NCBI GenBank assembly: GCA_043808785.1
Contig: JAZDEL010000006.1
Span: forward strand, 41,264-105,263
Reading direction: 5' to 3'
From: Candidatus Iainarchaeum sp.
Lineage (GTDB): Archaea > Iainarchaeota > Iainarchaeia > Iainarchaeales > JAZDEL01
Length of the DNA: 64,000 nt
In this document: positions 230 to 24,006 of the stretch, in pieces
Numbering within the stretch: position 1 is the stretch's first letter
Layout of the letters: each line of letters opens with the position of its first letter
The notes under the pieces: model-generated
Told to the model about the DNA's origin: nothing
Database searches by the model: none
Seen by the model: the letters and a program-made list of their open reading frames with translations, nothing else
Made by a program: the position numbers and the translations under genes

Positions 230-604
230 CCCACTTTGGAGCAGTTATTCCACTCAGGTATGCCCTTACAGGTGGCGGCAACTTCGAGCGCAAGCTAAAC
301 TTTCCCAAGTCCACGTTCCGCGGCTTTGTCATGAATTTCCAGAATCTGGACCGCCGAAATCTCGGGCCAAGTTTCGGCTTTTTGCTGGCCTGCCGAACGT
401 TCCGGGCACCCCACGATGGCTTTTTCCTCATCACTGCCAACCACAAAAGTAATGTGTCGCTTGCAATATATATTGCTGCCGTTTTGCAGCCCAGGGGCGG
501 GAATGCGCCCCTTATGCCCGAACTTGGGTTGCCCGGGCAAAATGCAAAACCCGCAAAAAACTCACGAATTTAAGGCTGTTGTTGCAGTTTATATTAAAGA
601 GACT

Positions 605-2566
605 ATGGGTTCCGAAGAGGGAATAATCGCGGGCTTGGGCGCAAATCCTTCCGATGAGGAAATAATAGCGGGCTTCGGGGCAAAGGTCAGGGAGCACTAC
701 CCTAACCCGGACATCGGGCTGATAAGGCAGGCCTATTTCTTCGCAAAGGAGATATGCACAAACGGGAAGACCGAGGGGGGCAGGCCTTTCATAATGCACC
801 CGCTCGGCACTGCAGCCATAGTGGCCGAAATGGGCGGGGACGAGAAGGCTGTCGCAGCAGCACTGCTGCACAACACCTGGGATGCGCAGATGCACGATGC
901 CTGGGGATTGAACCTCACAGGCAGGGACATAGTTGAGCGGCGCTTTGGCTGCGAAGTTGTCGGGATTATCGACGAGGTGCTGAGGGAAAGCAAGGCTGAA
1001 CTCGGTTACAAGAACAGGCTTTCCCCTTCGCTTCAGGCAAAGCTGCTGATGGCTGCAATGAGGGACAAGAGAGGGTTCCTTGTTAAGATTGCGGCAAGGC
1101 TTGACGCATTGAGGGAAGCCGCAGGCTGGAACTTGGAAAAGCGGGGGGAAATTGCAAAGGAGGCGATTGGCGTCTTCGCCCCGATTGCGGAAAGGCTCGG
1201 CATCTACAGGATAAAGGATGAGTTCGAGGAACTGGGCTTTAAATACCTGCACCCGAACGAGTATGCCGAACTGGCGGGCAAAATGGAGTCAAGGCTTTCA
1301 AAGGAGGAGGCGTGGCTGCGCGAAGCCGGGGGGATATTGAGGAAAAAAATCTCGGACGCGCACATAGAGGCGGAGATAACCCACAGGGCAAAGACGCTTT
1401 ACAGCATCTACAGGAAAATGGAAAGGCGCGGCGTGGGGCTTGAGGGCATATACGACTTGCTCGGGCTAAGGGTAATAACCGGCAGCGTGAAGGACTGCTA
1501 TTATGTGCTCGGGCTTGTGCATGCGCAGTGGAGGCATATGGAGTCCGAGTTCAACGACTACATAGCGAAGCCGAAGCAGAACAACTACCGCGCGATACAC
1601 ACCACGATTATCGGGCCGGGAGGCGTGACAATAGAGGTGCAGATAAGGTCCGGGGACATGCACAGGATTGCGGAGCTCGGGGTTGCTGCCGACTGGAAAT
1701 ACGAGAAGGTCATAGGCGAGGAACGGTATGAAAAAAGGCTGCTCTGGCTCAAGCAACTGTTCGAGTGGGAGAGGCAGGCACAGAACCCGAGCACGGGGGG
1801 CTTTGAAATAAAGTACAAGGGCGACGTTATTGTTGCGCTGACCCCCGACGGCGCGCCTATAGAACTGCCGCGGGGCGCAACAGTGCTCGATTTCGCGTAT
1901 GCCGTGCACACCGATGTCGGGAACAGGTGCAGCGGGGCAAAGGTTAACGGCAAGATGGTTCCGCTCAGGCACGCCCTTGAAAACCTTGATGTTGTGGAGG
2001 CAATGACCTCGCAAAGGCAAAAGCCTGTGAGGGGCTGGCTGGGAATAGTGAAAAGCGAAAAGGCGAGAAAAAAGATAAGGGCTGCGCTGCATATGGAAAG
2101 CGCGGAAAAGCCGCGGAAGGGCGCTGCACTGAAACAGAAGGTTTCCATAGGCGCCCGCGGGCAGGGGATTAAGCTGGCGAAGTGCTGCAACCCTTTGCCG
2201 GGGGACGGGGTAATCGGCTACAGGACGGCAAAGCGCAAGATATCGGTGCACAGGGAAGGGTGTGCCGAAGCCAAAAAAATGGGGGCTGTGCTTAAGCCGG
2301 TTGAGGTGGAATGGGGCGCAAAAGAAGCCGGGGGCTACTCGGCAAACATGGCAATAACCGCCAGGGAGGGGGCAAACATCTCCTCGCCAATGGCCGAACT
2401 GCTTTCGAAGCACGGCATAAGGCAGTGCGCGGCAAGCCTTAAAACAGTCAACAACAAAATAGCGAACTACACTTTCACAATAGATGTGAACGACCTGAAG
2501 GCGCTCATGGGCATAATCAGGGAAGCGGGAAAAATAGACGGCGTGATTGAGGTTTCAAGGGCGTAG
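605..2566 (+). CDS. bifunctional (p)ppGpp synthetase/hydrolase, RelA/SpoT homolog (HD + synthetase + TGS + ACT)
   Basis: HD hydrolase motifs (HPLGTAAIVAEMGGD...ALLHNTWD), a nucleotidyltransferase/synthetase core (YRAIHTTIIGPGGVTIEVQIRSGDMHRIAELGVAADWKYE), a TGS-like segment and a C-terminal ACT-like segment. Start refined to Met64 of the ORF (ATG 605). Confidence 0.85.
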   Translation: MGSEEGIIAGLGANPSDEEIIAGFGAKVREHYPNPDIGLIRQAYFFAKEICTNGKTEGGRPFIMHPLGTAAIVAEMGGDEKAVAAALLHNTWDAQMHDAWGLNLTGRDIVERRFGCEVVGIIDEVLRESKAELGYKNRLSPSLQAKLLMAAMRDKRGFLVKIAARLDALREAAGWNLEKRGEIAKEAIGVFAPIAERLGIYRIKDEFEELGFKYLHPNEYAELAGKMESRLSKEEAWLREAGGILRKKISDAHIEAEITHRAKTLYSIYRKMERRGVGLEGIYDLLGLRVITGSVKDCYYVLGLVHAQWRHMESEFNDYIAKPKQNNYRAIHTTIIGPGGVTIEVQIRSGDMHRIAELGVAADWKYEKVIGEERYEKRLLWLKQLFEWERQAQNPSTGGFEIKYKGDVIVALTPDGAPIELPRGATVLDFAYAVHTDVGNRCSGAKVNGKMVPLRHALENLDVVEAMTSQRQKPVRGWLGIVKSEKARKKIRAALHMESAEKPRKGAALKQKVSIGARGQGIKLAKCCNPLPGDGVIGYRTAKRKISVHREGCAEAKKMGAVLKPVEVEWGAKEAGGYSANMAITAREGANISSPMAELLSKHGIRQCAASLKTVNNKIANYTFTIDVNDLKALMGIIREAGKIDGVIEVSRA

Positions 2567-2582: not shown

Positions 2583-3713
2583 TTATTCCATGCGCAGCGC
2601 GTCCACAGGGTCCATTTTCGAGGCTGCATATGCGGGGTAAATTCCCGCAAAAATCCCCATGAAAAGGGCGAAGAGGAATGCCTCCGCTATGAGCACCGTC
2701 CCCACGACAGTTGTAAGGCCTGATAAGGAAGTGATTGCATTTGCAATGGCAATGCCTAAAATTATGCCCGCAATGCCGCCGAAAATTCCGAGGAGCGCTG
2801 ATTCGTAAAGGATCATTTTCATTACGTCATTGTTTGTCCACCCGACCGCCTTAAGCGCGCCTATTTCATTGAAGCGTTCCACAACACTCATCAGCATGGT
2901 GTTCAGTATGCCCACCCCCGCAACTATTGCCGCTATTGCGGCTACTGCGCCGACAAGCAGGCGCAGGCTGCCAAGCACGTCCCCTATCTGGCTCGAGAAA
3001 TCGCTCGCAGACCTTGCCTTGAGGTCGTCCCCGTACCTGAAATTTATTATTTCCGCTATCTTCTGGTCGTCCTCGGGGTTAGTGAGGCTGAGGCTGTACT
3101 GCGTGACCTTCCCCTGCGGCGCGTCAACAAGGTCCCTGAGGTCTGCGATAGGCATTATTATTGCCATATTGAGGATCGCCGAGCCTGTTTCGTAAACTCC
3201 CGCAATTTTGAAGCTCTTGCCGTTTATCTTTACATTGTTCCCGACAAATTTGTCGTTATCGTCGATAAATTGTTTTGAAACCATGATAACGCCCTTGTCC
3301 CCCGATTTGAGTTTCCTGCCGCTTACAAGCTCGCCTGAAAAGCCTGCTGCGCCCTCCATGCCGCCCTTGTCAAGGCCTATGCCTATGAGTTGTGCAGAGC
3401 CCCCTAAGATAGATGACGCGCCCTCTATGGACTTTGCAACAGAAACGAGTGTGGGGGTTACTTTCTCGACCCCGGTTATGGATTCGAGCTTTGCCTCATA
3501 TGAAGTGTCTATCTGGGAGAAGAGGCCTATCTGCCCCTTTTGGTAAACCACGACGCCCTGCATGTTGGAGAATGCGCCCTCAACCTCGGCAAGCATGCCG
3601 TCAACAACGGAAACCATGGCTATGATTGCGGCGACGCCTATGATTATGCCGAGCAGGGAAAGCACGGCCCTGCTGCGGTTCCTGAAAAGGTTTGAAACCG
3701 CGACCTTCAGCAT
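2583..3713 (-). CDS. ABC transporter permease, FtsX/MacB-like
   Basis: N-terminal TM helix, large periplasmic loop and C-terminal FtsX-like TM bundle. Paralog of 4417..5553. Confidence 0.8.
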   Translation of the reverse strand: MLKVAVSNLFRNRSRAVLSLLGIIIGVAAIIAMVSVVDGMLAEVEGAFSNMQGVVVYQKGQIGLFSQIDTSYEAKLESITGVEKVTPTLVSVAKSIEGASSILGGSAQLIGIGLDKGGMEGAAGFSGELVSGRKLKSGDKGVIMVSKQFIDDNDKFVGNNVKINGKSFKIAGVYETGSAILNMAIIMPIADLRDLVDAPQGKVTQYSLSLTNPEDDQKIAEIINFRYGDDLKARSASDFSSQIGDVLGSLRLLVGAVAAIAAIVAGVGILNTMLMSVVERFNEIGALKAVGWTNNDVMKMILYESALLGIFGGIAGIILGIAIANAITSLSGLTTVVGTVLIAEAFLFALFMGIFAGIYPAYAASKMDPVDALRME

Positions 3714-3725
3714 AAAACCCCCTGC

Positions 3726-4415
3726 TCAGGCCCTTGCGCGGCCGGGTTTTGTGCCCTCTATTTTCCCGTCGCGCATGTGGTACTGCACGCTGGCGAAGCG
3801 CAGGAGGCTTTCGTCGTGCGTGACTATGACGAATGTTTTTTTCTCGTCCTTGTTGAGGCGCCTCATTTCGCTGACTATTTTTCCGCCCGTAATTGAATCG
3901 AGATTGCCCGTGGGCTCGTCCGCAAAGATTATTTCCGGGTCGTTTATCAGCGCGCGTGCGATTGAAACGCGCTGCCGTTCCCCGCCAGACATTTCCGAGG
4001 GCTTGTGGAACATCCTGTCCTGCAGGCCCATCTGCCTGAGGAGCGATTTTGCCCGCCCCATGACCTTTTCCTGCGGCAGGTTCATCGGCTCGGTGGGAAT
4101 CATCACGTTTTCAAGCGCATTCAGGGTAGGAATAAGGTTGAATGCCTGGAATATGAAGCCTATTTTTTCGCGCCTTATCATTGCGAGGTGCCAGTCATCG
4201 AGCGCGGTTATGTTCTTGCCCCCTATATGCACGGTTCCTGATGTCGGATGGTCGAGCGCACCGAGGATGTGCATAAGCGTGCTCTTTCCCGAGCCGCTGG
4301 GCCCGACAATGATTACAAAATCGCCCTTCTTTACGTTGAGGGAGACGCCCCTTAGTGCGTGCACCGTGCTCCCGCCCATTTTGTATTCTTTGGTTATGCC
4401 GTTTGCCTCGATCAT
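3726..4415 (-). CDS. ABC transporter ATP-binding protein
   Basis: Walker A GPSGSGKST, ABC signature LSGGERQRVSIARAL, Walker B IIFADEPTGNLD. Start moved to the internal Met (ATG at 4415), which abuts the upstream permease stop. Confidence 0.85.
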   Translation of the reverse strand: MIEANGITKEYKMGGSTVHALRGVSLNVKKGDFVIIVGPSGSGKSTLMHILGALDHPTSGTVHIGGKNITALDDWHLAMIRREKIGFIFQAFNLIPTLNALENVMIPTEPMNLPQEKVMGRAKSLLRQMGLQDRMFHKPSEMSGGERQRVSIARALINDPEIIFADEPTGNLDSITGGKIVSEMRRLNKDEKKTFVIVTHDESLLRFASVQYHMRDGKIEGTKPGRARA

Positions 4416-4416
4416 T

Positions 4417-5553
4417 TTAACGCCCCCCGCTGATTGCGGCAACAGGGTCAAGTGATGACGCGCGGAATGCGGGGTAGATGCCCGCAAGCAGCCCTATAAT
4501 GAATGCAAAGCCGAAAGCCTGAAAAACCAATGGGGCGGTTATTGCGTAATTCAGGCCGAACGCCTGCTGGAGCGCGACATCAACGAGGAAACCAAGCACA
4601 AGCCCGAAAACTCCGCCGAGGCAGCCTAGGAAAACCGACTCATAAATTATCATGCGCATCACATCCTCGTTCCCCCACCCGACCGCCTTAAGCGCGCCGA
4701 TTTCTTTTGTGCGCTCCATTATGCTCATCAGGATCGTGTTTATTATTCCCACGCCCCCCACAATTGCGGAGATTGCCGCGATGAAAAAAACAAGAAGCCT
4801 GAAGTTGCCGAGAACGGAACCCATTTCATTCGAGAAGTCGGACGAGGTCATCGCCTCGAGGTCGTCCTTGTACTTGAAATTTATCGTGTTCGTGACCTCC
4901 TTGTCACGTGTGGGGTCGGTAAGGCCGAGGTAAAAGCTGCTAACCTTGCCCTCGGGGAAGCCGGAGAGGTCGCGCGCGTCATTTATGCTCATAACAATCA
5001 TGCTGCCCAGCATGCTCGAGCCGGCGCGGTATATGCCCCGTATCTTGAATTTTTTCCCGTCTATCTTGAAGGTGCTGCCGGGAAACTTGTCGTATTCGTC
5101 GGCAAGCTGCCTGCCGATAACCACATAGCCGTCCTCGCCGGGCTTGAGGAACTGGCCTTCCTCTATTTCCCCGACCCAGGGAACGCCGCCGAGAAGGAGA
5201 TAATCCCTTGCATCGAGGCCGTAAACAGCTGTGCTCATCATGCTGGTTACGGGACCGCCCTCTATGGTTGAAGGCAGCCCCCAGAGTTCGGGCATTGCCA
5301 GGCGCACGCCCCTGACGGATTCGAGTTCGTTCCCATAAGATTCGTCGACCTTTGAAAGCGTCTGGTCCATGGCGTCGCGCTCCATTACGTAAACGCCCTG
5401 GAACTGGCCTATGACGCTGTTCAGTTCCGCGTAAAGGCCGTCAACCATTGAAACAAGCACTATTATTGCGGCGACGCCTATGATTATGCCGAGCAGCGCA
5501 AGCGCGGTCCTGCTCTTTCTCCTGAAAAGATTTAGGAAGGATAACTTAATCAT
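4417..5553 (-). CDS. ABC transporter permease, FtsX/MacB-like
   Basis: Same architecture as 2583..3713. Confidence 0.8.
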   Translation of the reverse strand: MIKLSFLNLFRRKSRTALALLGIIIGVAAIIVLVSMVDGLYAELNSVIGQFQGVYVMERDAMDQTLSKVDESYGNELESVRGVRLAMPELWGLPSTIEGGPVTSMMSTAVYGLDARDYLLLGGVPWVGEIEEGQFLKPGEDGYVVIGRQLADEYDKFPGSTFKIDGKKFKIRGIYRAGSSMLGSMIVMSINDARDLSGFPEGKVSSFYLGLTDPTRDKEVTNTINFKYKDDLEAMTSSDFSNEMGSVLGNFRLLVFFIAAISAIVGGVGIINTILMSIMERTKEIGALKAVGWGNEDVMRMIIYESVFLGCLGGVFGLVLGFLVDVALQQAFGLNYAITAPLVFQAFGFAFIIGLLAGIYPAFRASSLDPVAAISGGR

Positions 5554-5565
5554 AAGTATTCGGGA

Positions 5566-6786
5566 TTAGGCCTTCCGCATTGCGAGCTGCCTAAAGACCA
5601 TTTTGATTATGAAGTACAGGAGTACAAGGATTACTATTATGAGAATCAGGAGCCCTATAGGGGATTCCGCGGGCTTCTGGTGCACATAAATCTCGAAATC
5701 CCGGGTTACTTGCTGCACGTTGTCAAGTTCGTCGCGGTAGGTTATTGTCACAGGCACGCTGTGCTTGCCTGTTTCCGCGGAAGGGTTTACTGTGAGGGTG
5801 AAAAGCCCCGACCCTGAGTCGTCCTCGTCTATGTTACCGACATAAGTCTCCAGTACGCCCTCTATGCTCTGGTCGGGGGCGAGGGAAATTTTAGTGGCTT
5901 TTGCGGTTTCCTCGCCTATGTTGTCCAGTTGCACCGAGAGCGTGAGGGTGTCGCCCAGCATTATGCGCTTGTCGTCGGTGCGGTACTCTATCGAAAAGTC
6001 GATCCCCGAAATTATGAGGTCCGGCTTGCCATATACATCGAAAGAAAATGCCTGCGTTGCGGTTGAGGGGCAGTCGAGGCAGTTTGCATCTATGTTGAAG
6101 ACATAGGTTTTAGGCGCCGCCTTGTCGGAAACCCTGAGTAGGAAATTTATTGTTTTGGACTCGCCCTGCGGTATGTTGCCTGGCTCGAGCACTGTGTCCG
6201 ACAGGGATATGAAAGGGTCGAGGGTGCTGTTTGTCTTCGGGATCAGCTTCACAGTTACGTCCCTTGCCTCGCCGGAGCAGTTGTTCGAGAGGTTCGCAGT
6301 TATGCGTAAGGTTTCGCCGATGTGCGGGGAATAGCTGTCAAGCATTACGTTTCCGACATCGAGGCCATAGCACTCCACCACAAGCAGGTTAACGTCGTAG
6401 CTCTGTTCGATGCGCTTGGTTCCGTTGAGGTATGAGAGATTAACCGAGAATTTGTAGGTTCCCGCGTATGCCTTTTCTTTTATTTTGAACCTGAAAACCG
6501 CGTTTTTGAGCGCGCCGGCATAAATCGTGCCGAGCTGCTCGGTTACGTGGATGGGCTCGAAATACGCCCCGCTCAGCATCAGTGTTGCGTTAACGTCGGT
6601 GGCTATGGAATTGCCGGAGGTGTTTTCCACCCTTACATTGAGGTTTACCGTGTCGCCCGCATAAACAGTTGCAGGGCTCTGGGAGAAGGTGCCGACCTTG
6701 AGGATTGTGTCGTATGTGCTGGAGTAGGCGGCAAATGCCGAGGGCAGCAGGATAAACGCAACCAGAAGAAAAACAATGCGCTTCAT
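5566..6786 (-). CDS. secreted cell-surface protein (S-layer-domain/CARDB-like, COG1361-type partner of the ABC operon)
   Basis: Signal peptide MKRIVFLLVAFILLPSAFA, beta-rich repeats, C-terminal TM anchor followed by basic residues. Position is typical of the archaeal surface-protein + ABC ATPase + permease operon. Confidence 0.6.
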   Translation of the reverse strand: MKRIVFLLVAFILLPSAFAAYSSTYDTILKVGTFSQSPATVYAGDTVNLNVRVENTSGNSIATDVNATLMLSGAYFEPIHVTEQLGTIYAGALKNAVFRFKIKEKAYAGTYKFSVNLSYLNGTKRIEQSYDVNLLVVECYGLDVGNVMLDSYSPHIGETLRITANLSNNCSGEARDVTVKLIPKTNSTLDPFISLSDTVLEPGNIPQGESKTINFLLRVSDKAAPKTYVFNIDANCLDCPSTATQAFSFDVYGKPDLIISGIDFSIEYRTDDKRIMLGDTLTLSVQLDNIGEETAKATKISLAPDQSIEGVLETYVGNIDEDDSGSGLFTLTVNPSAETGKHSVPVTITYRDELDNVQQVTRDFEIYVHQKPAESPIGLLILIIVILVLLYFIIKMVFRQLAMRKA

Positions 6787-6993
6787 AAGAACACCTAAAA
6801 TGCCCGCATTAATCAGCGGCACATAAAGTAAGTGAACGCAAGTAATTTAAATGTGGCGCTATTTTGCGCAGCAACGGCATGCTGTGCGCCGCAGGGAGCT
6901 TGCGGCAGTATGCATGCGCAATCGCGGGGGGTATGAAAGCTATAAATAGTAGTTTGCCTTACTGTTATTGTTTTATTTAAGGGGCGTGAAAAA

Positions 6994-11082: not shown

Positions 11083-12708
11083 TTAGCGGAATTCGTTCAG
11101 GCGCTTAATTACCCTGTCTTGCCCTAACGCAAAAATAAGCGTGCCTATCCTCGGGCCGCGCTCTTTTGCGAGGAGCGCGAGGTAGAGGGATTTGAAAAGT
11201 TCGCTTTGCTGGGTGTTATTTGATTTTGCAAGGGCGAAGAGTTCCGCGAGGAGTGCGTCCGCCGATTTGCTTTTGCGCACGAGTTCCACAACCTGCGGGA
11301 ACAAAGATGCTGCAGCGGGGGAAATCGCATTTTTCGCATCTACGGGAAGTTTTTCAGCGAACGCCAGTTTCGAATCCGCGGGTGCGTATTTCTCGGACCA
11401 TGCGCGCGCGTTGCGCAGGCGCCCGAGGAGCGCTGCCTTTTCCTGCGCGGGGATTTTTTTAGGGAGGCTTCCCGAATCCTGCAGTTTTGCAATGAGTTCG
11501 GCATCGGATGAGAAAAGCTGCGAGAGGGAGGTGGCGAGGGAATAATCCAAAAGCGCTTCGCCAAGTTCCCTGCCGTGAACCCTAGAATAAGTGAAAAATT
11601 TTTTTGATTCCGGATTAGCCCCAACGGACGCAATAACCCTGTCCAGCTCGAGTTCAAGGTTGGGCACGTCCTGCCACGAGAAGCTGCGGGCTTTTGTTAT
11701 GCGCTTTATGAACAAATATTTAAGGGCTTCGGGCCTCGCCACCTCAAGCCAGTCTTTGGGGTAAATTACGTTGCCGAGGGAAGCGCTCATCTTTTTTCCG
11801 TCAACCATCAAATGCTCGTAAAAAATCGGCTCCGGTGCGGGAAAATTAAGGACGCGCTCGCAGATTTCCGCGTTTATCCAGAAGGCGGAATTCCTTGATT
11901 CGTACTCCTTGCCCGCGCCCTCGGAACAAACGCCCCAGCGCTTCCACTGCGCAGCCCACTCGCTTTTCCATACCAACTTGCCGTTGGCTTTTTTTAAATC
12001 CGCGGTGCCTTCATGCCCGCAGCCCTTTGCTGTTTCGGTTTCAAACTTGTAATCGCCGCAAACGTAATTAACCTTCGAATCCTCGACCGAGGTTATTTTT
12101 GTGGTTTGTATTTTGCCGCACTTTTCGCAGACCTGCTGCCAGGGGAACCAGTTCGCGCCGAGGTGCGTGCCTTCTTCCTTGAATTTGTTTATTATTTCGC
12201 GCACTGTCGATGTGCCTTTCAGAACCTGCATTACTTCCTCATTGAAATTGCCTTTCTTGTACTCTTCCCGCATCGAGAAGCGCTTTGGTTCGGAGTCGAG
12301 GAACTGCTTCATTGTTTCAAAAAATATTTCTGCGTGGTGCTGTGCGTAGCTTTTGTGGCAGCCCTCGGGGTCGGGGATGTCCGAGACGGGCATGCCTATG
12401 CATTCGCGGAATTTTTCGGGAACGCCTGCGGGGATTTTCCTCAATGGGTCCATGTCCTCGGTTACGTAAATGAAGCCCGTTGGGAAGCCCCGCGATTTCA
12501 GGGCCTTGTAAACCGCCTCGCTGCGGATTATGTCCGAGAGGCGGCCTATATGGAGAACGCCCGAAAGGGAGGAACTTGACTTGACGTTCCATTTTTTCAG
12601 TTTCGGCGCGCTTGCATGGGAAAAACTGCCCTTTTCGCGCCGTGCAATTTTTTCCGCAATCTGCTCCGCCCAGAAAATGGCTTCCTTGCCGTCAGTTGAC
12701 TGCCGCAT
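11083..12708 (-). CDS. lysK: lysine--tRNA ligase, class I (archaeal type)
   Basis: Class I LysRS-like sequence including HIGRLSD. Start set to the internal Met (ATG at 12708), because the upstream part of ORF 11083..13479 overlaps the antiporter gene on the other strand. Confidence 0.85.
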   Translation of the reverse strand: MRQSTDGKEAIFWAEQIAEKIARREKGSFSHASAPKLKKWNVKSSSSLSGVLHIGRLSDIIRSEAVYKALKSRGFPTGFIYVTEDMDPLRKIPAGVPEKFRECIGMPVSDIPDPEGCHKSYAQHHAEIFFETMKQFLDSEPKRFSMREEYKKGNFNEEVMQVLKGTSTVREIINKFKEEGTHLGANWFPWQQVCEKCGKIQTTKITSVEDSKVNYVCGDYKFETETAKGCGHEGTADLKKANGKLVWKSEWAAQWKRWGVCSEGAGKEYESRNSAFWINAEICERVLNFPAPEPIFYEHLMVDGKKMSASLGNVIYPKDWLEVARPEALKYLFIKRITKARSFSWQDVPNLELELDRVIASVGANPESKKFFTYSRVHGRELGEALLDYSLATSLSQLFSSDAELIAKLQDSGSLPKKIPAQEKAALLGRLRNARAWSEKYAPADSKLAFAEKLPVDAKNAISPAAASLFPQVVELVRKSKSADALLAELFALAKSNNTQQSELFKSLYLALLAKERGPRIGTLIFALGQDRVIKRLNEFR

Positions 12709-12856
12709 GCAGAACCACAGATAGGATAGGGGGAATGAAATAGTTAAACTTAATGTTCCGGCACCCGCGGGGAGTACTGAAAAAACACAAAAAACAAACC
12801 GCGGTTGGCGGGAAAAAGCATTAAATAACACGTGGGGCATTAGAGTTACGGTTAAG

Positions 12857-14029
12857 ATGGAACTGTTTCTCGTTCTCGGCGCGCTGTTCCTGCTGACGTT
12901 CCTTATCGGGCAGGTTGTGGAGAAAATAAGGGTGCCGTGGATTTTCGCCGCGCTGCTCATAGGCACCGTGCTTGCCGCGTATAACCCGGTCGGGGACGTG
13001 ACCTCGTCCGAGCCGTTTATTTTCCTGGCGCAAATGGGGATGTATTTCCTTCTTTTCGTGATAGGGTTTGAGATAGACCTTGCGGAGTTCAGGAAGGCGG
13101 GTGCGTTCATACTGAAGAGCACGTTTTTCATAATCCTGCTTGAGGCGGTGTTCGGCAGCCTGCTTATCCACTTCGTTTTCGGGTATGATTGGGCGATATC
13201 GGCAATAGTTGCGCTGTCCTTCGCCACGGTTGGGGAAGCCATACTCATCCCGATACTTGACGAGTTCGGCATCGTTAACACGAGGCTCGGGCAGAGCATA
13301 ATAGGGATAGGGACGCTCGACGACATAATAGAGGTTGCGATGCTTATCGTGGTAATAATGCTCGTTGGCTCGCAGGGCGCGGCGCAGGCAAGCGCGGGGG
13401 TTACGCTTGTTTCGCTCTTCGTGCTTTCCGCGCTTGCCGTGGTGCTGATGAGGCTGGGCAAGTCGGGCAGGAAGTTCATGTTTCACGGCATCGAGATGCT
13501 TTTCCTGTTCGTGCTTTTCGTGCTTTTCCTTTTCCTCGGGGTCGGGGAGTATGCGAACGCGGGGCCTATAGCCGCGCTCCTTGCGGGGATTTCGCTTAAG
13601 GCGTTTGTGCCGAAGGAGAGGCTGCAGGCGATAGAGTCCGAGGTAAAGACGATGTGCTACGGCTTCTTTGCGCCGGTGTTTTTCCTCTGGGTCGGGCTTT
13701 CGCTCGACATAGGGTATCTGCTTGCGTTTCCGCTGCTTGTGCTTGCGGTAGTGGTTGTTTCAAACAGCGCGAAGATTCTGGGCAGCTACATAATGGCGAG
13801 GAAGGAGCTTGGCACAAGGCAGTCGATTCTGCTCGGCATCGGGCTGTCAGTGAGGTTCAGCACGAGCATAATCATAGTAAAGATTCTTCTTGACAACGGG
13901 CTTATAGGCGCGGAGTTGTATTCGGTAATTGTCGCGTCAAGCATAGTGTTCAAGTTTGTCGTGCCCGTGCTGTTCTCAAACCTGCTCGTGAAGTGGGGCG
14001 TTTCGAAGGGCTCAACCGTAGCGGGGTAA
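12857..14029 (+). CDS. cation:proton antiporter (CPA2 / Kef-type Na+(K+)/H+ exchanger family)
   Basis: About 11-12 TM helices with Na_H_exchanger-like motifs. 390 aa. Confidence 0.7.
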   Translation: MELFLVLGALFLLTFLIGQVVEKIRVPWIFAALLIGTVLAAYNPVGDVTSSEPFIFLAQMGMYFLLFVIGFEIDLAEFRKAGAFILKSTFFIILLEAVFGSLLIHFVFGYDWAISAIVALSFATVGEAILIPILDEFGIVNTRLGQSIIGIGTLDDIIEVAMLIVVIMLVGSQGAAQASAGVTLVSLFVLSALAVVLMRLGKSGRKFMFHGIEMLFLFVLFVLFLFLGVGEYANAGPIAALLAGISLKAFVPKERLQAIESEVKTMCYGFFAPVFFLWVGLSLDIGYLLAFPLLVLAVVVVSNSAKILGSYIMARKELGTRQSILLGIGLSVRFSTSIIIVKILLDNGLIGAELYSVIVASSIVFKFVVPVLFSNLLVKWGVSKGSTVAG

Positions 14030-14042
14030 AAAAATAAGAAAG

Positions 14043-14184
14043 TGGGAAGAGCGGGATTTGAACCCGCGACACCACGGTTTCTGCTCCTTTCGCAAAACCT
14101 GGAATCTTCAGCTGCACATGGGCAGAGCGTGGAAAACTCCCCTCAACGCCCATCGTGTGCTCTCCCAGGCTGAGCTACCTTCCC
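14043..14184 (-). tRNA. tRNA-Phe(GAA)-like gene, 142 nt, probably with two introns
   Basis: 5' half GGGAAGGTAGCTCAGCCTGGGAGAGCACACG and 3' half CCGTGGTGTCGCGGGTTCAAATCCCGCTCTTCCCA are 68 nt apart. Removing a 41-nt segment after position 30 and a 27-nt segment after position 38 leaves G+CTGAAGA as the anticodon loop and a 74-nt cloverleaf. The anticodon assignment is an inference. Confidence 0.6.
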
Positions 14185-14207
14185 ACTCCAAGAATTGGGG
14201 GCTTTAT

Positions 14208-14218
14208 TGTTTAAAAAG
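14208..14218 (-). promoter_or_regulatory. TATA-like box (TTTTTAAA on minus strand) about 26-33 nt upstream of the tRNA 5' end
   Basis: A/T hexamer in GC-rich surroundings at the expected archaeal spacing. Confidence 0.4.
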
Positions 14219-14222
14219 GATT

Positions 14223-14858
14223 CTATTCCGTCGCAGCCATGGCCCGCGCTAGTTTATAGGGGTTTGAAAAGCCGATTTCGGAAATCCATTTTCGCAGGTT
14301 TGCCTTCCCGTTTAGTGGAACCTTATATGCGGTTCGGACTGATGTTTTTGATTTGTAAGCCCAAATTTTTGCAACATTGAATCCGGCAACGCTTAATAGT
14401 TCCTTCAACTGTTCCGCAAGAGCGCGGCTCGTAGTGGTTATCTCAATAGAAGGGTATTTCGGCGAGCCCGGTTTGTCGGCCACGAAAACGGAGCCGTCCG
14501 TGTCCACGATGCCCCGGATTGCGTGCTTTGCCGACTCCCAATCGGCTTCGATTTCGGCGGGAATTTTGGCCTTAGCGCACTTGCCTTCATGGAAAGGCAA
14601 CCTGAATGTAGTCGTCAGGCGTTCCACGATCGGCTTAGAGTCAAATTTAATTCTGACCGCACGTTCCCTGAATTTAGGCTTAACCACCCGCCCCCATGCG
14701 GAATAAATTAGGCGGCTCAGATTTTCAAAATACTGCGCATCGGTTATTGGATTTCCCGTAAAGCCGATTATGTATTTCCTGTTGCGTTTGTAAATGTGCC
14801 CGTCCCCGAGGTAGGCGCCGATTAGTTCGCATTCTTCGGGAGAAATAGTTTCAGCCAT
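14223..14858 (-). CDS. LAGLIDADG homing endonuclease, double-motif, free-standing
   Basis: Two LAGLIDADG motifs, LIGAYLGDGHI and IRGIVDTDGSV. 211 aa, between two intron-containing tRNA genes. Confidence 0.8.
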   Translation of the reverse strand: MAETISPEECELIGAYLGDGHIYKRNRKYIIGFTGNPITDAQYFENLSRLIYSAWGRVVKPKFRERAVRIKFDSKPIVERLTTTFRLPFHEGKCAKAKIPAEIEADWESAKHAIRGIVDTDGSVFVADKPGSPKYPSIEITTTSRALAEQLKELLSVAGFNVAKIWAYKSKTSVRTAYKVPLNGKANLRKWISEIGFSNPYKLARAMAATE

Positions 14859-16868: not shown

Positions 16869-17004
16869 CGAGCCCGAGGGGATTTGAACCCCCGACACCC
16901 TGGTTGCCCCAGAATGGAAATTAAGAGCCTCACCCACGCACAAGGAAACCGCAAGCGGAAACTTGAAACATGACAGGTGCTCTACCAGACTGAGCTACGG
17001 GCCC
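16869..17004 (-). tRNA. tRNA-Lys(CUU)-like gene, 136 nt, probably with two introns
   Basis: Acceptor, D and T arms are identical to tRNA-Lys(UUU). Removing 45 nt after position 30 and 17 nt after position 38 leaves G+CTCTTAA as the loop between CCTGG/CCAGG stems, giving 74 nt. The anticodon assignment is an inference. Confidence 0.55.
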
Positions 17005-17124: not shown

Positions 17125-18426
17125 TTATTTCGCGCCCTTCCTGGGCTTAATCTCGTCAATCCCGTGCATGAAAGGGAGCAAGGCATCTGGGATTTTTACT
17201 GTGCCTTTTTCGGTCTGGAAGTTTTCTACAATCGCGCGGATTGTGCGCGAGGTTGCGAGCGCTGTGCTGTTCAAAGTGTGAACGAACTCCTTGCCCTGCG
17301 CTGTGCGGAATTTTATGTTAGAACGTACTGCCTGGTAAGAGGTGCAATTAGAGGCGGAAACAACTTCGGCATAATTCTGTTCGCGCGGGAACCATGCCTC
17401 TATGTCGTACTTGCGTGCTGCAACTGTGCCTATGTCGCCTGTGCAGACATCGACAACGCGGCAAGGTATGCGCAGACCCTGGAGGAGTTCCTCCGCGTTT
17501 TTCAGGAGTTCGTCAAGCAGTTTTGCGCTTTCTTCTGGTTTGCAAAATACGAACTGTTCTACCTTGTTGAACTGGTGCACGCGGAACAGGCCGCGAGTAT
17601 CAACGCCGTGCGCGCCGATTTCGCGGCGGAAGCAGGGAGAGATGCCTGCGTATTTCAAAGGCAGGGAACGCTCCTCGAGGATTTCGCCTGCGTGCATTGC
17701 GCAGAGCGGGTGCTCGGAAGTTGCAATCAGGTAAGTGTCCACACCCTCGATTTTATACATAACTTTCTCGAAGTCTTCAAGCGCCGTGACCCCTTCATAT
17801 GGCGCGCGGTTCATGAAGAAGGGCGGCTTTATCGGCGTGAAGCCTTTCTTGAGCAGGTGTGAAAGGGAGTATTGCACAAGCGCGCTGTCGAGGAGCGCGA
17901 GTTCGCCAATGAGGAAATAAAAACCCCTGCCGGAGGTTTTCGCTGCGCGCTCGAAATCAACCAATCCTGCGTTCTGCAGGAATTCGCCGTGGGGATGCAT
18001 TTTGAATGAAGGAACTTCTGTTTTGCCCCAGCGGCGGATGACCTTGTTTTCCGAGGAGTCTTTGCCCAAGGGGACGTCTTTTTCGAGGAGGTTGGGGAGG
18101 GAGAGGAGCATCGGGCGCGCCTGAAGGCGGAGTTTTTCCGCCTTTGCGTCAAGGGCCGCAATCTTTTTCGAAACCGCCTTTGCTAGCGAGATTTTTGCCT
18201 TTGCTTCTTTTTTTGAGGCGGCTTTTGAAATTGTTTCGGTTAGGGTGTTGCGCTTCTTTTTGAACTGCTCGGATTGGTAAGAGAGGCGAACGATTTTCTT
18301 GTCAAGCGCAAGAAGCCTTTCCAGCAGCGCTTCCTTCCCTCCCATGCCGCGGCGCTTGAGGTCTGCTTTTACCGCATCGGGGTTTGCGCGCACGAATTTC
18401 AGGTCGAGCATGTGAACACGAACCAA
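17125..18426 (-). CDS. serS: serine--tRNA ligase
   Basis: N-terminal coiled-coil arm plus class II aaRS core. 433 aa. Confidence 0.9.
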   Translation of the reverse strand: MVRVHMLDLKFVRANPDAVKADLKRRGMGGKEALLERLLALDKKIVRLSYQSEQFKKKRNTLTETISKAASKKEAKAKISLAKAVSKKIAALDAKAEKLRLQARPMLLSLPNLLEKDVPLGKDSSENKVIRRWGKTEVPSFKMHPHGEFLQNAGLVDFERAAKTSGRGFYFLIGELALLDSALVQYSLSHLLKKGFTPIKPPFFMNRAPYEGVTALEDFEKVMYKIEGVDTYLIATSEHPLCAMHAGEILEERSLPLKYAGISPCFRREIGAHGVDTRGLFRVHQFNKVEQFVFCKPEESAKLLDELLKNAEELLQGLRIPCRVVDVCTGDIGTVAARKYDIEAWFPREQNYAEVVSASNCTSYQAVRSNIKFRTAQGKEFVHTLNSTALATSRTIRAIVENFQTEKGTVKIPDALLPFMHGIDEIKPRKGAK

Positions 18427-18453
18427 TGATTAATCATTATTAAAGGATTTACC

Positions 18454-19029
18454 TTGTTATTATTTTTTATGGCGAGGGGTTTAAAGGCGGGTTCGCCAAA
18501 AGGAGAGGTTGTTGTACTCAGGTATGGCCACAGGGCTGTGCGCGATTATCGGGTAACCTCGCACTGCTGCCTTGTTGCAAGGGCGTTCGGGGCGAAGAGG
18601 ATAATTATCGCGGGGGAGGCTGACCCTGAAATAAAACAGAGTGTTGACGGGGTCACGGCAAAATGGGGCGGGAAGTTTGAGGTTCAGTTCACGGATTCGT
18701 GGAGGGAAACAATTACAGGGCATAAGAAAAAAGGTTTTGCCTGCGTGCACACAACAATGTACGGCTTGAGGCTGCAGGATGAGATTAAGCGGATAAGGAA
18801 GCGCGGGAAAGTGCTGTTAATACTCGGCTCGCAGAAGGTGGAGAGGGCGGTTTATGAAATGGCGGATTTCAATGTGGCGATAACATCGCAGCCGCACTCG
18901 GAGATTGCCGCGCTTGCGGTTTTCCTGCACGAATATTTTCAGGGAAAGGGGCTTGGGCTTGAATTCAAAGGCGCGAAAACTAAGATAACGCCGGAAGCGC
19001 ACGGGAAGAATGTGAGGAAGGCGAATTAA
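18454..19029 (+). CDS. SPOUT methyltransferase, probably tRNA (cytidine56-2'-O)-methyltransferase aTrm56
   Basis: VVVLRYGHRAVRDYRVTSHCCLVARAFGA...MYGL...NVAITSQPHSEIAALAVFL matches the aTrm56 pattern. About 190 aa. Confidence 0.65.
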   Translation: MLLFFMARGLKAGSPKGEVVVLRYGHRAVRDYRVTSHCCLVARAFGAKRIIIAGEADPEIKQSVDGVTAKWGGKFEVQFTDSWRETITGHKKKGFACVHTTMYGLRLQDEIKRIRKRGKVLLILGSQKVERAVYEMADFNVAITSQPHSEIAALAVFLHEYFQGKGLGLEFKGAKTKITPEAHGKNVRKAN

Positions 19030-19032
19030 CCC

Positions 19033-19434
19033 TTAGCGAGCCATTAAACGGATGAGCTCCTTTTTCCCGCCTGAGAGCTTCACCAAAGCGCGCGTGAGTT
19101 CTGGATCAAAATGCCACTCGGCTCTCTCCCGCAGCGCACCGAGGCGGCTGTTTAGTTGCAGTTCACTCTTCGCGGCATTTATCTCTTTAGCCAGACGCCT
19201 GGCAAACTCAAGTTCTTCCTTGTCCACGGGCCAGTCATGCCTCTTTGGCACAGCATGCTTGCCGCGTTTCAGTTTGTTGTCTCTTTGCACTAGCAGGCGG
19301 AGTACGTCTGTGTGCAGCTCATGATAAACGCGCTGCTTCTCAGCCTCATTTCTCAGGGCTTTACGAGAATAATAGTTGGTCTTTAGTTTTATAATTGCTT
19401 TTTTAAGCCCCACACAAACCACCCATTTTGGCAC
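19033..19434 (-). CDS. hypothetical protein
   Basis: 133-aa ORF, no recognisable motifs. Confidence 0.35.
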   Translation of the reverse strand: MPKWVVCVGLKKAIIKLKTNYYSRKALRNEAEKQRVYHELHTDVLRLLVQRDNKLKRGKHAVPKRHDWPVDKEELEFARRLAKEINAAKSELQLNSRLGALRERAEWHFDPELTRALVKLSGGKKELIRLMAR

Positions 19435-19570
19435 GCAATGCTACCGCTAAAAACAAACGTGGTTTGCATATATAACCGTTGTGCTGCAGTTAATGGCGGC
19501 GAAATCGAACGCAAAACGCGTCTTGCGCGCACAAAAAACGGAAAAATATTTTTCGCGCACGTGTGTAAGT

Positions 19571-19580
19571 GTTTTAAACA
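19571..19580 (+). promoter_or_regulatory. TATA-like box (GTTTTAAACA) about 25 nt upstream of the tfe ATG (leaderless-type promoter)
   Basis: A/T box at the expected spacing from the start codon. Confidence 0.4.
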
Positions 19581-19600
19581 ATTAGCAGGGGAATTATGTC

Positions 19601-20134
19601 ATGGCGAGGAAGGAACTCTGCGATTTTGTGATTGTGCAAACGTACCTGAGTTCGCTGGCGGGGGAGCACGCAAGCAAACTTGTGAGGATTTGCGGGAGGA
19701 AGAGGAAACCCATTACGGACGAGGAGATAGAAAAGAAGCTCCCGATAAAAATAACCGAGATAAGGACAATACTCAACAGGCTGCATTACTGGGGGATTGC
19801 ATCATACCAGAAAAGCAGGAACCCGAACACAGGATGGTATTCGTATTCGTGGGAAATAAAGCCGGACAGGATTTCGGAACTTATAGCGGAGGGGCAGGCG
19901 GAGGAGATTGCGAAGATAGAGGCGAAGATAGAGTACGAGAGGAATTACGCCTTTTTCAGCTGCAAGGGCGGGTGCAATAACGTGCCCTTTGAAATTGCCG
20001 CGGAATACGAGTTCAAGTGCCCTGACTGCGGGAAGACAATGGAGGCAGTGAATAACGAGAAAAGGGTAAAGGAACTGAAGAAAGGCCTGAAGGACATTGT
20101 TGACAGCATTGGGGAGATAAAGAAGCTTGTGTAA
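19601..20134 (+). CDS. tfe: transcription factor E (TFIIE-alpha homolog)
   Basis: N-terminal winged helix plus C-terminal zinc ribbon (CKGGC...CPDCG). 177 aa. Confidence 0.8.
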   Translation: MARKELCDFVIVQTYLSSLAGEHASKLVRICGRKRKPITDEEIEKKLPIKITEIRTILNRLHYWGIASYQKSRNPNTGWYSYSWEIKPDRISELIAEGQAEEIAKIEAKIEYERNYAFFSCKGGCNNVPFEIAAEYEFKCPDCGKTMEAVNNEKRVKELKKGLKDIVDSIGEIKKLV

Positions 20135-20315
20135 GCGCGCGGGCGGGGCAAGCTGTGGTTGCGGGCATCAGTTGGCATTTAACCAGAAGGCAAAATAACA
20201 CACATTGTTGGACAAACGGCACAATTTGCAAAGGGAACAATAATTAACCCGATAACGTTATTTTGTTTGCTTTCCGAAAGGTAATTAAACAGATGAATAT
20301 GATAAGTTAAGTTAC

Positions 20316-20402
20316 AGCGGGGTAGGGCAGCCTGGAGTGCCCGTCGGGCTCATATTCCATGGGGAAACCCGAAGGTCGAAGGTTCAAATCCTTCCCCCGC
20401 TA
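20316..20402 (+). tRNA. initiator tRNA-Met(CAU) with a canonical 12-nt intron (37/38)
   Basis: AGCGGGG...CCCCGCT-A with an A1:U72 pair, GGG/CCC at the base of the anticodon stem, CTCATA|TTCCATGGGGAA|A loop, and T-arm GAAGGTTCAAATCCTTC. Confidence 0.85.
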
Positions 20403-20408
20403 TGTTTA

Positions 20409-20441
20409 CTTTCGCCCCTTTTAAGCGAAAGGCTTGTTTTA
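20409..20441 (+). terminator. hairpin (CTTTCGC...GCGAAAG) followed by a T-rich tract directly after the tRNA-iMet 3' end
   Basis: Inverted repeat plus TTGTTTTA. Confidence 0.35.
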
Positions 20442-20540
20442 AGGCACGCACTTGGCTCCTGCGAGGCGGGCGGCTTGCTATGCACAGGGAGGGGGCTAAA
20501 TTCGCGTACGCACTTCCGGCAAGGCGGGGCAAACCCACCT

Positions 20541-20750
20541 TTTTCACTCACACACTTTTTGGGCCTGCCAGCGCAAAGCCTGATGCGTGCACTCACTTGC
20601 CGGCAAGCTAACCCGCAGCATTGCTTACTCTCGCTCACTTATTGGCGCACTTGGCCAAAAGAGGCTTAAAATCAACTCACTTTTCACTTAAGGCGCGCAA
20701 GGTTACTTCTGCGGGCCTGTTTTTAGGCGAAAAATCACTCACTTTTTGCA
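20541..20750 (+). repeat. five or six dispersed direct copies of CACTCAC(T)T spaced 30-70 nt downstream of tRNA-iMet
   Basis: Copies at about 20545, 20590, 20634, 20666, 20675 and 20737. Confidence 0.5.
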
Positions 20751-20840
20751 ACGGTTTTGCACTGTTTTTGGGCTTTTTTGGTTTAAATGGCTTGAAATAC
20801 GGCAATTGACTATAAAATGGCAGTAATTAATGGTAATTAC

Positions 20841-20892
20841 CGTAAATAATTTAGGTAAATACAGTCATTATAGTAAATAATTTAAGTAGATA
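20841..20892 (+). repeat. two about 21-nt AT-rich direct repeats (GTAAATAATTTAGGTAAATAC / AGTAAATAATTTAAGTAGATAG)
   Basis: 17/20 identity, 30 nt apart, in a locally AT-rich patch just upstream of ORF 20894. Confidence 0.5.
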
Positions 20893-20893
20893 G

Positions 20894-21361
20894 GTGCAAC
20901 TAGATAGCGTTATGCTCAAAGGATTTGTGCGCGGAATAATGGGCGCGCTGCTGAAAGTGGCAAACTGGGCCAGCACAGAGGGCAAGGCACCTGCTGAAGA
21001 GACTATTTATGAGCGCCAGAAGGGCGAACCTGCTTCCGAAGAGGTGCACAGCATCTGGGATTACCTGGAGTTTGCGGAAAACAGCCAGGCATTCCACCTT
21101 GTGGGAGTTGTGGGGTTTGAGGAATGGGTGGATATGGCGGAGATAAAGAGGAGGATAGCGGAGATTTACAAAATCGAGTATAAGAACGACCGCAGCCTTT
21201 ATCCATACATAAAGACGCTTACTGACGCGGGCCTGTTTGAAACAACGAGTGCGGGGGGCAGGAGGAAGTGGAGGAAGCGCGACCTTGTGATTAAGCTCAA
21301 AGGGAGCATCAAAAAAGAGGCTTTGGTGCGGCAGGCTGAAAAGGCACAAAGGAGGGAATAG
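20894..21361 (+). CDS. hypothetical protein
   Basis: 155-aa ORF downstream of AT-rich direct repeats. Confidence 0.4.
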   Translation: MQLDSVMLKGFVRGIMGALLKVANWASTEGKAPAEETIYERQKGEPASEEVHSIWDYLEFAENSQAFHLVGVVGFEEWVDMAEIKRRIAEIYKIEYKNDRSLYPYIKTLTDAGLFETTSAGGRRKWRKRDLVIKLKGSIKKEALVRQAEKAQRRE

Positions 21362-21940: not shown

Positions 21941-22033
21941 GAATAAAACAGCACTTCTACATAACTATGCAGGCGGCACCCTAGTTTCGTTGCTCCCTTA
22001 GAATTACGGCTTAAAGGGGCTGAAAATTAGGGC

Positions 22034-23922: not shown

Positions 23923-24006
23923 TCAACCCCCCCTGCAGTTGCCGCCATAATTGACGCTTTTTTAATATATAACTCTTTCCTTCACAATTTGCATTTTGCA
24001 GGCCGC

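Follow-up and report, generated by a model that had tools for sequence, protein, structure and literature searches.

The stretch analysed here (hereafter the window) comprises 64,000 nt of contig JAZDEL010000006.1 from Candidatus Iainarchaeum sp. (assembly GCA_043808785.1, positions 41,264 to 105,263 of the forward strand). It carries close to its left end a gene for a long RelA/SpoT homologue (RSH) in which the site for (p)ppGpp synthesis is preserved while that for (p)ppGpp hydrolysis is degenerate. The gene lies within a longer open reading frame (ORF, 416..2566, + strand) and encodes a protein of 653 residues followed by a stop codon. Its product (P0001) shows 100% full-length identity to an NCBI entry that is encoded on a 113,830-bp contig and annotated as 'MAG: HD domain-containing protein [Candidatus Diapherotrites archaeon]', and members of its clade are annotated in NCBI as RelA/SpoT family proteins. 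An HD-type domain and a RelA_SpoT synthetase domain follow each other in one polypeptide, and TGS, zinc-finger (ZFD/RIS) and ACT domains are found behind them (Table 1), which confirms the description as a long multidomain RSH given in an initial reading of the nucleotide letters alone (the sequence-only reading). The match to the general family model NCBIfam TIGR00691 (spoT_relA) barely passes the threshold (500.6 bits vs a cut-off of 499.2), while the scores for the RelA equivalog NF008124 (354.8 bits vs 728) and for the SpoT equivalog (362 vs 947) are far below it. Among proteins of solved structure, mycobacterial RelA, E. coli RelA and B. subtilis Rel match best (1e-96 to 5e-113), at a level far above chance. 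Lacking the alpha-helical domain (PF19296), the protein falls about 75-90 residues short of the length of bacterial long RSHs.

Table 1. Features of the RSH gene, its encoded domains and the KaiC-like gene downstream of it (positions refer to the window, residues to the RSH protein).
Feature	Position	Strand	Basis
AT-rich TTTATATT box, 10-17 nt 5' of the ATG	588..595	+	sequence read directly
Coding sequence, long RSH	605..2566	+	ORF list, NCBI identity, Pfam/NCBIfam
In-frame 39-bp tandem duplication, 1.9 copies, 86% match	610..684	+	TRF
Pseudo-hydrolase HD_4 (predicted), residues 43-200	731..1204	+	Pfam PF13328 (3.3e-24), HMMER/MAFFT alignments, translation
(p)ppGpp synthetase domain (predicted), residues 250-368	1352..1708	+	Pfam RelA_SpoT PF04607 (residues 260-368, 1e-37), residue table, translation
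TGS, residues 411-465, with H435	1835..1999	+	Pfam (2.5e-20), alignments
Alpha-helical domain remnant: helix 485-500 (= Linker Helix 1), then disorder	2030..2140	+	alignment gap, AlphaFold
ZFD/RIS zinc finger, residues 513-562, ligands C527, C528, H549, C553	2141..2290	+	PF28438 RelA_RIS, alignment
ACT/RRM, residues 576-652	2330..2560	+	Pfam ACT_4 (4.9e-08), model
Single-domain KaiC-like ATPase, 246 aa	6994..7734	+	Pfam KaiC (1.5e-74)

Hydrolase residues were numbered through a HMMER alignment to B. subtilis Rel (6yxa, native numbering), alongside MAFFT alignments that included E. coli RelA and SpoT. Both HD motifs are altered, HDxxED reading HNTWDA (ALLHNTWDA in translation) and ADRLHN reading AARLDA (VKIAARLDALRE in translation). 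Of the Mn2+ ligands, H53 and H77 are retained (as H65 and H89), while D78 is replaced by N90 (872-874) and D144 by A164 (1094-1096); HMMER and MAFFT concur on H89-N90 and on A164, and the translation confirms them. Further substitutions affect the phosphate-binding pair R44/K45 (T56/E57), Y50 (F62), H147 (D167), N148 (A168) and T151 (E171). The counterpart of E81/D82 is either D93/A94 (MAFFT) or, after a 4-residue gap, D93/D97 (HMMER), and 8 residues are inserted directly after the degenerate HD motif. The protein thus lacks the combination of HDXXED with H53/H77/D78/D144 that characterises bifunctional enzymes, and has what characterises RelA[hS], the monofunctional stringent factor of Beta- and Gammaproteobacteria, namely an HD domain that is retained but catalytically degenerate. 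Identical HD substitutions occur in two independent assemblies (P0002 in locus L002, P0003 in locus L001). The sequence-only reading had proposed a check that the catalytic residues are intact in both domains, and for the hydrolase this check fails, on HNTWDA, AARLDA and the T/E pair at R44/K45. A missing HDXXED motif is the accepted cause of absent hydrolysis in monofunctional RelA (PMC2666561). The window protein is accordingly predicted from its residues to be devoid of (p)ppGpp 3'-pyrophosphohydrolase activity, and its HD domain, which has kept its fold in the structure model, is regarded as a pseudo-hydrolase.

The synthetase site is complete. R261, K263, K271, D284, R289, K324, N326, Y328, H332, E344 and Q346 correspond to R241, K243, K251, D264, R269, K304, N306, Y308, H312, E323/324 and Q325/326, the set expected of a competent synthetase domain. 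Ten synthetase residues (R241, K243, K251, D264, R269, D298, Y308, H312, E324 and Q326) are kept in every one of 88 aligned sequences, and K304 and N306, both present in the window protein, in 85 and 86 of them. As one outcome that would speak against it, the sequence-only reading had named a degenerate synthetase, leaving a hydrolase-only SpoT-like protein; the opposite was found, an intact synthetase next to a degenerate hydrolase. The RXKD motif of bifunctional-type enzymes is missing, its position being occupied by E315-F-N317-D318 (1547-1558; EFNDYIAKPKQNNYRAIH in translation), and monofunctional RelA enzymes have EXDD in place of RXKD (PMC2666561, PMC3153485). We consider it likely that the gene encodes a long RSH of bacterial origin which has long been resident in Diapherotrites (Iainarchaeia-type) DPANN archaea and is now a monofunctional, RelA-like synthetase.

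The family to which the protein belongs was revealed by an exhaustive profile search of 1.84 billion representatives, which gave about 35 clusters of one-piece long RSHs of 613-702 aa. Word-indexed homologue searches had returned lists dominated by Clostridia and one additional short-linker protein (P0121), and a scan of GTDB genomes with very specific peptides (from a 3-sequence alignment) gave 1 true relative and 2 weak bacterial matches, so having little bearing on distribution. The alignment of 88 sequences consists of 40 short sequences, 46 of bacterial type, E. coli RelA and E. coli SpoT. At the HD sites, full-length bacterial-type proteins show R-x-Y-H-H-D-E-D-D-H-N-T; most of them have RXKD, and their linker between TGS and ZFD spans 116-189 residues. 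The six metal-ligand and dyad positions are HHDEDD in 44 of the 46, and also in E. coli SpoT. The clade of the window protein comprises 14 clusters with linkers of 45-52 residues, all 14 with a degenerate HD site, and RXKD is replaced mostly by an acidic or neutral motif (E/D/S/C-x-D/N/Q-D). EFND is found in the window protein and its two nearest relatives and E-x-D-D in four further clusters, the remaining motifs being D/S/C/R-x-D-D, E-x-K-D, E-x-Q-D and K-x-Y-D. This clade has a bootstrap value of 99% in a neighbour-joining (NJ) tree and contains a sub-clade of the window protein, P0002 and P0003 (100%), all of which have H-N; three members of the 14 clusters are shown or labelled to be archaeal. 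A set with linkers of 55-59 residues joins it with 70% NJ support (26 sequences), and some of these have fully intact HD sites. Two of the latter lie in an archaeal context, P0101 adjoining an archaeal histone gene and P0184 lying near an archaeal-type UMP kinase gene.

The two catalytic domains differ in their degree of conservation. Mean pairwise identity within the clade is 0.31 for the HD domain vs 0.54 for the synthetase domain (ratio 0.57), compared to 0.56 vs 0.58 (ratio 0.95) in bacterial Rel and 0.55 vs 0.57 in the HD-intact archaeal set. By this measure the HD domain of the clade evolves at roughly double the rate of its synthetase domain, a signature which has been described for RelA[hS] by Atkinson et al. 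(PMC3153485). Selection has preserved the synthetase together with the histidine that senses tRNA and the zinc finger, and has released the hydrolase site. The pattern also bears on the possibility, implicit in the sequence-only reading, that the protein is a bifunctional Rel/SpoT-type enzyme capable of both synthesis and degradation of (p)ppGpp. Its four domains and its TIGR00691 match would be compatible with such an enzyme, as would the remaining H65 and H89, the acidic residues D93 and D97/D98 near the HD motif, and the complete HD site in the sister archaeal proteins P0004, P0101, P0121, P0145, P0146, P0183 and P0184. We nevertheless regard bifunctionality as very unlikely, as two Mn2+ ligands are lost together with R44/K45, N148 and T151, the HD domain is under relaxed constraint throughout the clade, RXKD, a motif of bifunctional enzymes (PMC2666561), is replaced, and the SpoT equivalog score falls so far short of its cut-off.

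In the C-terminal half, the sensor elements are conserved and the connection between them is reduced. H435 corresponds to H420 of B. subtilis Rel and H432 of E. coli RelA in the alignments, the TGS histidine that stacks on the tRNA's 3' CCA end and whose mutation abolishes activation (PMC7797070). It is kept in 87 of the 88 aligned sequences, and the zinc-finger CCHC ligands in all 88. By contrast, Pfam gave no match to PF19296 in the window protein, although this domain is present in every bacterial hit listed, and the alignment shows no counterpart to residues 508-590 of E. coli RelA (83 residues, comprising the alpha-helical core and Linker Helix 2). Of the layout TGS, alpha-helical, ZFD/RIS and ACT/RRM, the first and the last two are thus present, with the alpha-helical domain reduced to one helix. 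In RelA the missing core packs on the D-stem of the A/R tRNA (PMC4974054, from which the domain limits were taken). The AlphaFold model (mean predicted local distance difference test score, pLDDT, 82.9) places only the lone helix and a disordered segment between TGS and the zinc finger, and shows an ACT domain with the beta-alpha-beta-beta-alpha-beta fold (pLDDT ~90). Its N-terminal half superposes on S. aureus Rel (7oiw) with TMt 0.94 and a root-mean-square deviation (rmsd) of 2.1 A, and RIS plus ACT on the ribosome-bound RelA chain 5kps_A with TMt 0.77 and rmsd 2.8 A, so that in the model the fold of the ribosome-anchoring module is retained. The ribosome-contacting residues of the RelA ACT domain (R670, Q705/706, R739) are variable even within bacteria and hence uninformative.

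The protein shares with E. coli RelA (5iqr, 5kpv) the order of pseudo-hydrolase, synthetase, TGS, ZFD/RIS and ACT domains, the absence of HDXXED, an acidic motif in place of RXKD (EFDD in RelA, EFND in the window), a similar second HD motif (KLAERIAHLRE and KIAARLDALRE, respectively), the equivalent of TGS His432 and the zinc-finger CCHC. However, it is only 31% identical to E. coli RelA, against 37% to Firmicutes Rel, is separate from it in the NJ tree, where its own clade has the 99% support given above, and scores far below the cut-off of NF008124. The equivalog score, the identity and the tree all speak against descent from the duplication that gave rise to RelA and SpoT, which defines RelA[hS]; the protein does not belong to the RelA lineage. 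Also unlike E. coli RelA, the window protein lacks residues 508-590 and has an archaeal host, and neither the window nor the flanks of the related loci yielded a SpoT-like paralogue. The resemblance to RelA is best read as convergence, the protein being RelA-like in its predicted properties without being a RelA orthologue.

Firmicutes Rel (6yxa/6htq, RelSeq 1vj7, 7oiw) is the closest full-length relative by score (38-41%, mostly Clostridia), with an identical synthetase site and the same fold of the N-terminal half. It differs in having H53/H77/D78/D144, E81-D82, RXKD and a linker of 116-189 residues, where the window protein has N90, A164, no ED dyad, EFND and a linker of 49. Archaeal RSHs with a short linker and an intact HD site (P0004, P0101, P0121, P0145, P0146 and P0184) resemble the window protein in their truncated architecture (linkers of 55-58 residues, no PF19296) and group with it in the NJ tree, but have kept HHD...ED...D...HN..T and in some cases RXKD, and are probably bifunctional, judged by these motifs. 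Within this comparison, the window's clade is taken to represent a hydrolase-degenerate offshoot of the short-linker family. The best full-length matches outside the clade are bacterial, from Clostridia and other Firmicutes at 38-41% identity, no bacterial sequence exceeding 41%. As NJ support for the sister group is only 4%, "Firmicutes-like" is a statement about best scores and does not name the bacterial donor.

That the window is archaeal, as had been claimed from the sequence and was to be checked with marker genes, is borne out by a class I lysyl-tRNA synthetase (LysRS, lysS_arch equivalog), aTrm56, the archaeal D-aminoacyl-tRNA deacylase (DTD2), a modified mevalonate pathway, several KaiC-like ATPases and intron-bearing tRNAs. 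The RSH gene was also rightly described as typical in composition: its GC content (0.560), its GC at third codon positions (0.697) and its codon-frequency correlation with 15 other genes (r 0.86) are inside the range of the window genes. The claim of an old acquisition is supported because the gene order RSH-(ABC/CARDB)-KaiC-polyprenyl synthase-LysRS recurs in other archaeal assemblies. In L002 (GTDB representative 'Candidatus Iainarchaeum archaeon', RSH 58% identical) the order is as in the window, with RSH(+), FtsX-ABC-FtsX(-), CARDB(-), KaiC(+) and polyprenyl synthase(-). On a 387-kb contig (L011, GCA_964540145.1) an A-type ATPase operon and triose-phosphate isomerase (TIM, -) are followed by RSH(+), the ABC/CARDB/FtsX cassette, KaiC, polyprenyl synthase and class I LysRS. 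A 270-kb contig of 'Candidatus Diapherotrites archaeon' (L013) has an intein-bearing RadA, TIM(-), RSH(+) and KaiC(+), while L007 contains RSH, KaiC and class I LysRS, and L001 TIM(-) and RSH(+).

These data also speak to the possibility of an artefact, in which a bacterial gene was fused to archaeal DNA by mis-assembly or mis-binning, as might be suspected from the bacterial origin of the best full-length matches outside the clade and from the position of the gene near the left end of the window. The same neighbourhood is found in independent assemblies from different samples (L001, L002, L007, L011, L013), flanked on either side by archaeal genes (A-type ATPase, intein-bearing RadA, class I LysRS), composition and codon usage match the window, and no bacterial sequence comes closer than the limit given above. 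The shared gene order excludes a chimera or a mis-binned bacterial gene for practical purposes, and we consider an artefact extremely unlikely. The RSH gene is a resident one that has been vertically inherited within the lineage.

A KaiC-like gene is located downstream of the RSH gene in all five clade loci with a downstream flank, namely the window, L002 (14209-14949), L007 (2323-3063), L011 (16295-17035) and L013 (11965-12708). In L007 and L013 it directly follows RSH in the same orientation; in the window, L002 and L011 it comes after the ABC cassette. This association and the deletion of the alpha-helical core, by which the A/R tRNA is gripped (PMC4974054), could point to an active synthetase that is independent of the ribosome and switched by a small ligand bound to ACT or by a protein partner, for example the KaiC-like ATPase. 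Against such a switch, the clade shows no variation in the CCA-sensing histidine or in the zinc-finger ligands despite the decay of the HD site, from which we argue that sensing of tRNA and ribosome is still under selection. The KaiC-like protein is, moreover, far more conserved between loci (58-89% identity) than the RSH (33-58%), and the adjacency may be mere inherited synteny, the organisms not being very distant. We regard ribosome-independent regulation as unlikely.

As the RSH would be unable to degrade its own product, another enzyme must do so. When an intact HD domain served as phmmer query for the complete set of six-frame ORFs from the window and eight related loci (with ~1-10 kb of flank per side), RSH genes were the only matches. 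The one Nudix protein of the window (ORF 39576-40115) was considered as an alarmone hydrolase and rejected, as it is an IDI type 1. The sequence-only reading had concluded that the organism uses (p)ppGpp signalling; the synthesis side of this is implied by the intact synthetase residues, while its other half found no counterpart in a hydrolase nearby.

The mechanism that we favour for a monofunctional synthetase of bacterial origin would run as follows. The synthetase would transfer pyrophosphate from ATP to the 3'-OH of GDP or GTP, so that (p)ppGpp would be made but not degraded by this protein. The charge change from RXKD to E-x-N/D-D would accompany the loss of hydrolysis, as in proteobacterial RelA, and the pseudo-HD domain may have a structural or allosteric role, as has been proposed for RelA. 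Deacylated tRNA, recognised via TGS, would most likely be the trigger, probably on the archaeal ribosome through ZFD/ACT and with a simplified grip on the tRNA; this gating by ribosome and tRNA is the weakest part of the proposed mechanism.

Several observations weigh against this interpretation. At the degenerate hydrolase site, it does not account for an invariant histidine (H97) within the 8-residue insertion, and the two alignment methods differ over which acidic residues, if any, replace E81/D82. The motif in the synthetase domain is EFND and not EXDD. The RSH is the fastest-evolving gene of the syntenic block (57.6% identity to L002 vs 67-89% for its neighbours; 39.7% to L011, where neighbours have 52-81%), which could reflect a weakly constrained function. 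The window and the flanks of the eight loci contain no small alarmone hydrolase, second RSH or other candidate hydrolase. Loss of the alpha-helical core is the loss of a known tRNA contact, and archaeal ribosomes are unlike bacterial ones, for which reasons activation by the ribosome is put forward here as an inference only. In bacteria, a synthetase without a hydrolase is usually toxic (PMC3153485), and according to a 2023 review (p)ppGpp has not been described in archaea, being undetected in Haloferax or Sulfolobus (PMC10249747).

Some of these points could be explained if the protein had a different output, such as (pp)pApp, pGpp or tRNA pyrophosphorylated at its CCA end, of the kind seen with toxic small alarmone synthetases, or if it were a decaying, non-catalytic remnant. 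Rapid evolution within the block and the lack of a hydrolase partner in the window and the flanks of the eight loci would fit this; a 2021 bioRxiv preprint reportedly found that some RSH toxins modify tRNA. EXDD-type enzymes do yield some pGpp (PMC2666561). However, the residues for guanine positioning and transfer (K304, N306, Y308, H312, E324, Q326 and others) are invariant across the 14 clusters at <40% identity, which argues for purifying selection on a canonical long-RSH synthetase site, and the ORF is intact in every assembly. We thus judge a different product or a remnant to be improbable and retain the RelA-like (p)ppGpp synthetase as the preferred explanation.

A more far-reaching version of the RelA-like explanation, which is possible but in our view rather doubtful, would be a true stringent response in Diapherotrites/Iainarchaeia. 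Here, a synthetase-only factor on archaeal ribosomes would read the CCA end of uncharged A-site tRNA via TGS without an alpha-helical domain, and (p)ppGpp would be cleared by a non-RSH hydrolase. Such a system would presuppose that DPANN archaea acquired a bacterial Rel in the distant past and that this then converged on proteobacterial RelA, and would represent the first archaeal alarmone pathway and a natural minimal ribosome-sensing module.

The presence of RelA/SpoT proteins in Diapherotrites is already known. Atkinson et al. (2011) reported few single-domain RSHs in archaea, namely a divRel small alarmone synthetase in Methanosarcina acetivorans and small alarmone hydrolases in Natronomonas, Methanococcoides burtonii and M. 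barkeri, and found long RSHs to be lacking there (PMC3153485); those proteins are single-domain, while the window protein is multidomain. For DPANN, Li et al. (2021) put the share of genomes with RelA/SpoT at 69% for Diapherotrites, 41.7% for Woesearchaeota, 21.3% for Pacearchaeota and 19% for Nanoarchaeota; these are KO-level presence percentages, and the sentence reporting them offers no analysis of domains, motifs or activity (PMC8407392). The statement in the sequence-only reading that such proteins are rare in archaea therefore holds for archaea generally (PMC3153485) and not, by the figure of 69%, for this phylum (PMC8407392). Archaeal RSHs have been attributed to transfer from Bacteria (PMC3153485, PMC8407392). 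A 2019 preprint on RSH classification names archaea in its methods only. Our literature search found no description of an architecture that is hydrolase-dead, EXDD-like and devoid of the alpha-helical domain, and a long RSH of this predicted type appears to be new.

The locus provides a concrete, testable object for the question of archaeal (p)ppGpp, with synthesis but not hydrolysis predicted from the sequence, a defined clade, hydrolase-intact sisters to compare it with and a ribosome-binding region that is truncated by nature. Should the protein prove active, Archaea would join the organisms with (p)ppGpp signalling, and a second, independent change from a bifunctional Rel to a RelA-like enzyme, including the charge switch at RXKD, would inform on the coupling of the catalytic domains; this looks like an independent and convergent Rel-to-RelA transition. 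The truncation of the alpha-helical domain offers a test of the contacts that sensing of deacylated tRNA truly requires, and the missing hydrolase points to an alarmone-degrading enzyme in these archaea.

The start codon of the RSH gene is likely the ATG at 605, which gives a protein beginning with MGSEEG, since the alternative ATG at 416 would add 63 codons that are without counterpart in homologues, and the relatives all begin near 605. The AT-rich box upstream of it (Table 1) may be an archaeal TATA element, as judged from its sequence; orthologues also have upstream AT-rich boxes, but these cannot be aligned with the TTTATATT box. The tandem duplication at the start of the gene results in a repeated N-terminal EEGIIAGLGA / EEIIAGFGA, which is absent from the other orthologues in the alignment. 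Between the RSH start and a divergent ORF that extends beyond the left edge lies a GC-rich intergenic region of ~380 bp (223-604) without a supported ORF. The upstream neighbour is TIM in L001, L002, L011 and L013 but not in the window, so that the upstream side has been rearranged here.

On the downstream side, a MacB/FtsX-ABC-CARDB cassette occurs in the window (2583-6822, -), in L002 (9882-14112, -) and, with a different internal order, in L011 (11914-16251, +). It is on the strand opposite to RSH in the window and L002, on the same strand in L011, and absent from L007 and L013, and looks like an inserted and later inverted module. Class I LysRS is encoded directly after KaiC in L007 and one or two genes further on in L011 and the window, while in L013 a class II aminoacyl-tRNA synthetase (12741-14222, +; tRNA-synt_2 plus an anticodon-binding OB fold) follows RSH-KaiC. 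The LysRS ORF of the window (11083-13479, -) has 798 aa, with homology to lysS_arch from residue 269, and its orthologues have 533-542 aa; either translation begins at an internal codon or the N-terminus is extended by ~265 aa.

Among the remaining features of the window, Rfam matched tRNAs at 14043-14184 (-, 142 nt) and 16869-17004 (-, 136 nt) that were missed by ARAGORN and are probably intron-containing archaeal tRNAs. ORFs for LAGLIDADG homing endonucleases are found at 14223-14858 (-), 35884-36507 (+) and 46759-48084 (-), one of which (441 aa) lies within the mevalonate block; related loci (L007, L013) also contain LAGLIDADG ORFs and an intein-bearing RadA. The region ~18000-25100 has a GC content of 0.49-0.50 vs ~0.54 and includes a tRNA-Met (20316-20402), ORFs without Pfam matches and a tyrosine recombinase (24007-25083), and may be a mobile element integrated at the tRNA gene. 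The isoprenoid block at 39576-51711 (-) encodes IDI type 1 (Nudix-fold), isopentenyl phosphate kinase, AcnX, a response-regulator-like ORF, a UbiD-like decarboxylase, a flavoprotein, a GHMP kinase, thiolase, HMG-CoA synthase and HMG-CoA reductase, and represents the modified archaeal mevalonate pathway in one cluster. The segment 51738-54744 (-) encodes a glycyl radical enzyme resembling pyruvate formate-lyase (751 aa) beside its radical-SAM activase, a pair which is unusual in an archaeon and may be another bacterial acquisition. Finally, four genes at 59656-63466 (59656-60429, 60429-61283, 61345-62298 and 62336-63466) form a KaiC-like/DUF7504 cluster that suggests an expanded set of KaiC-family signalling proteins.

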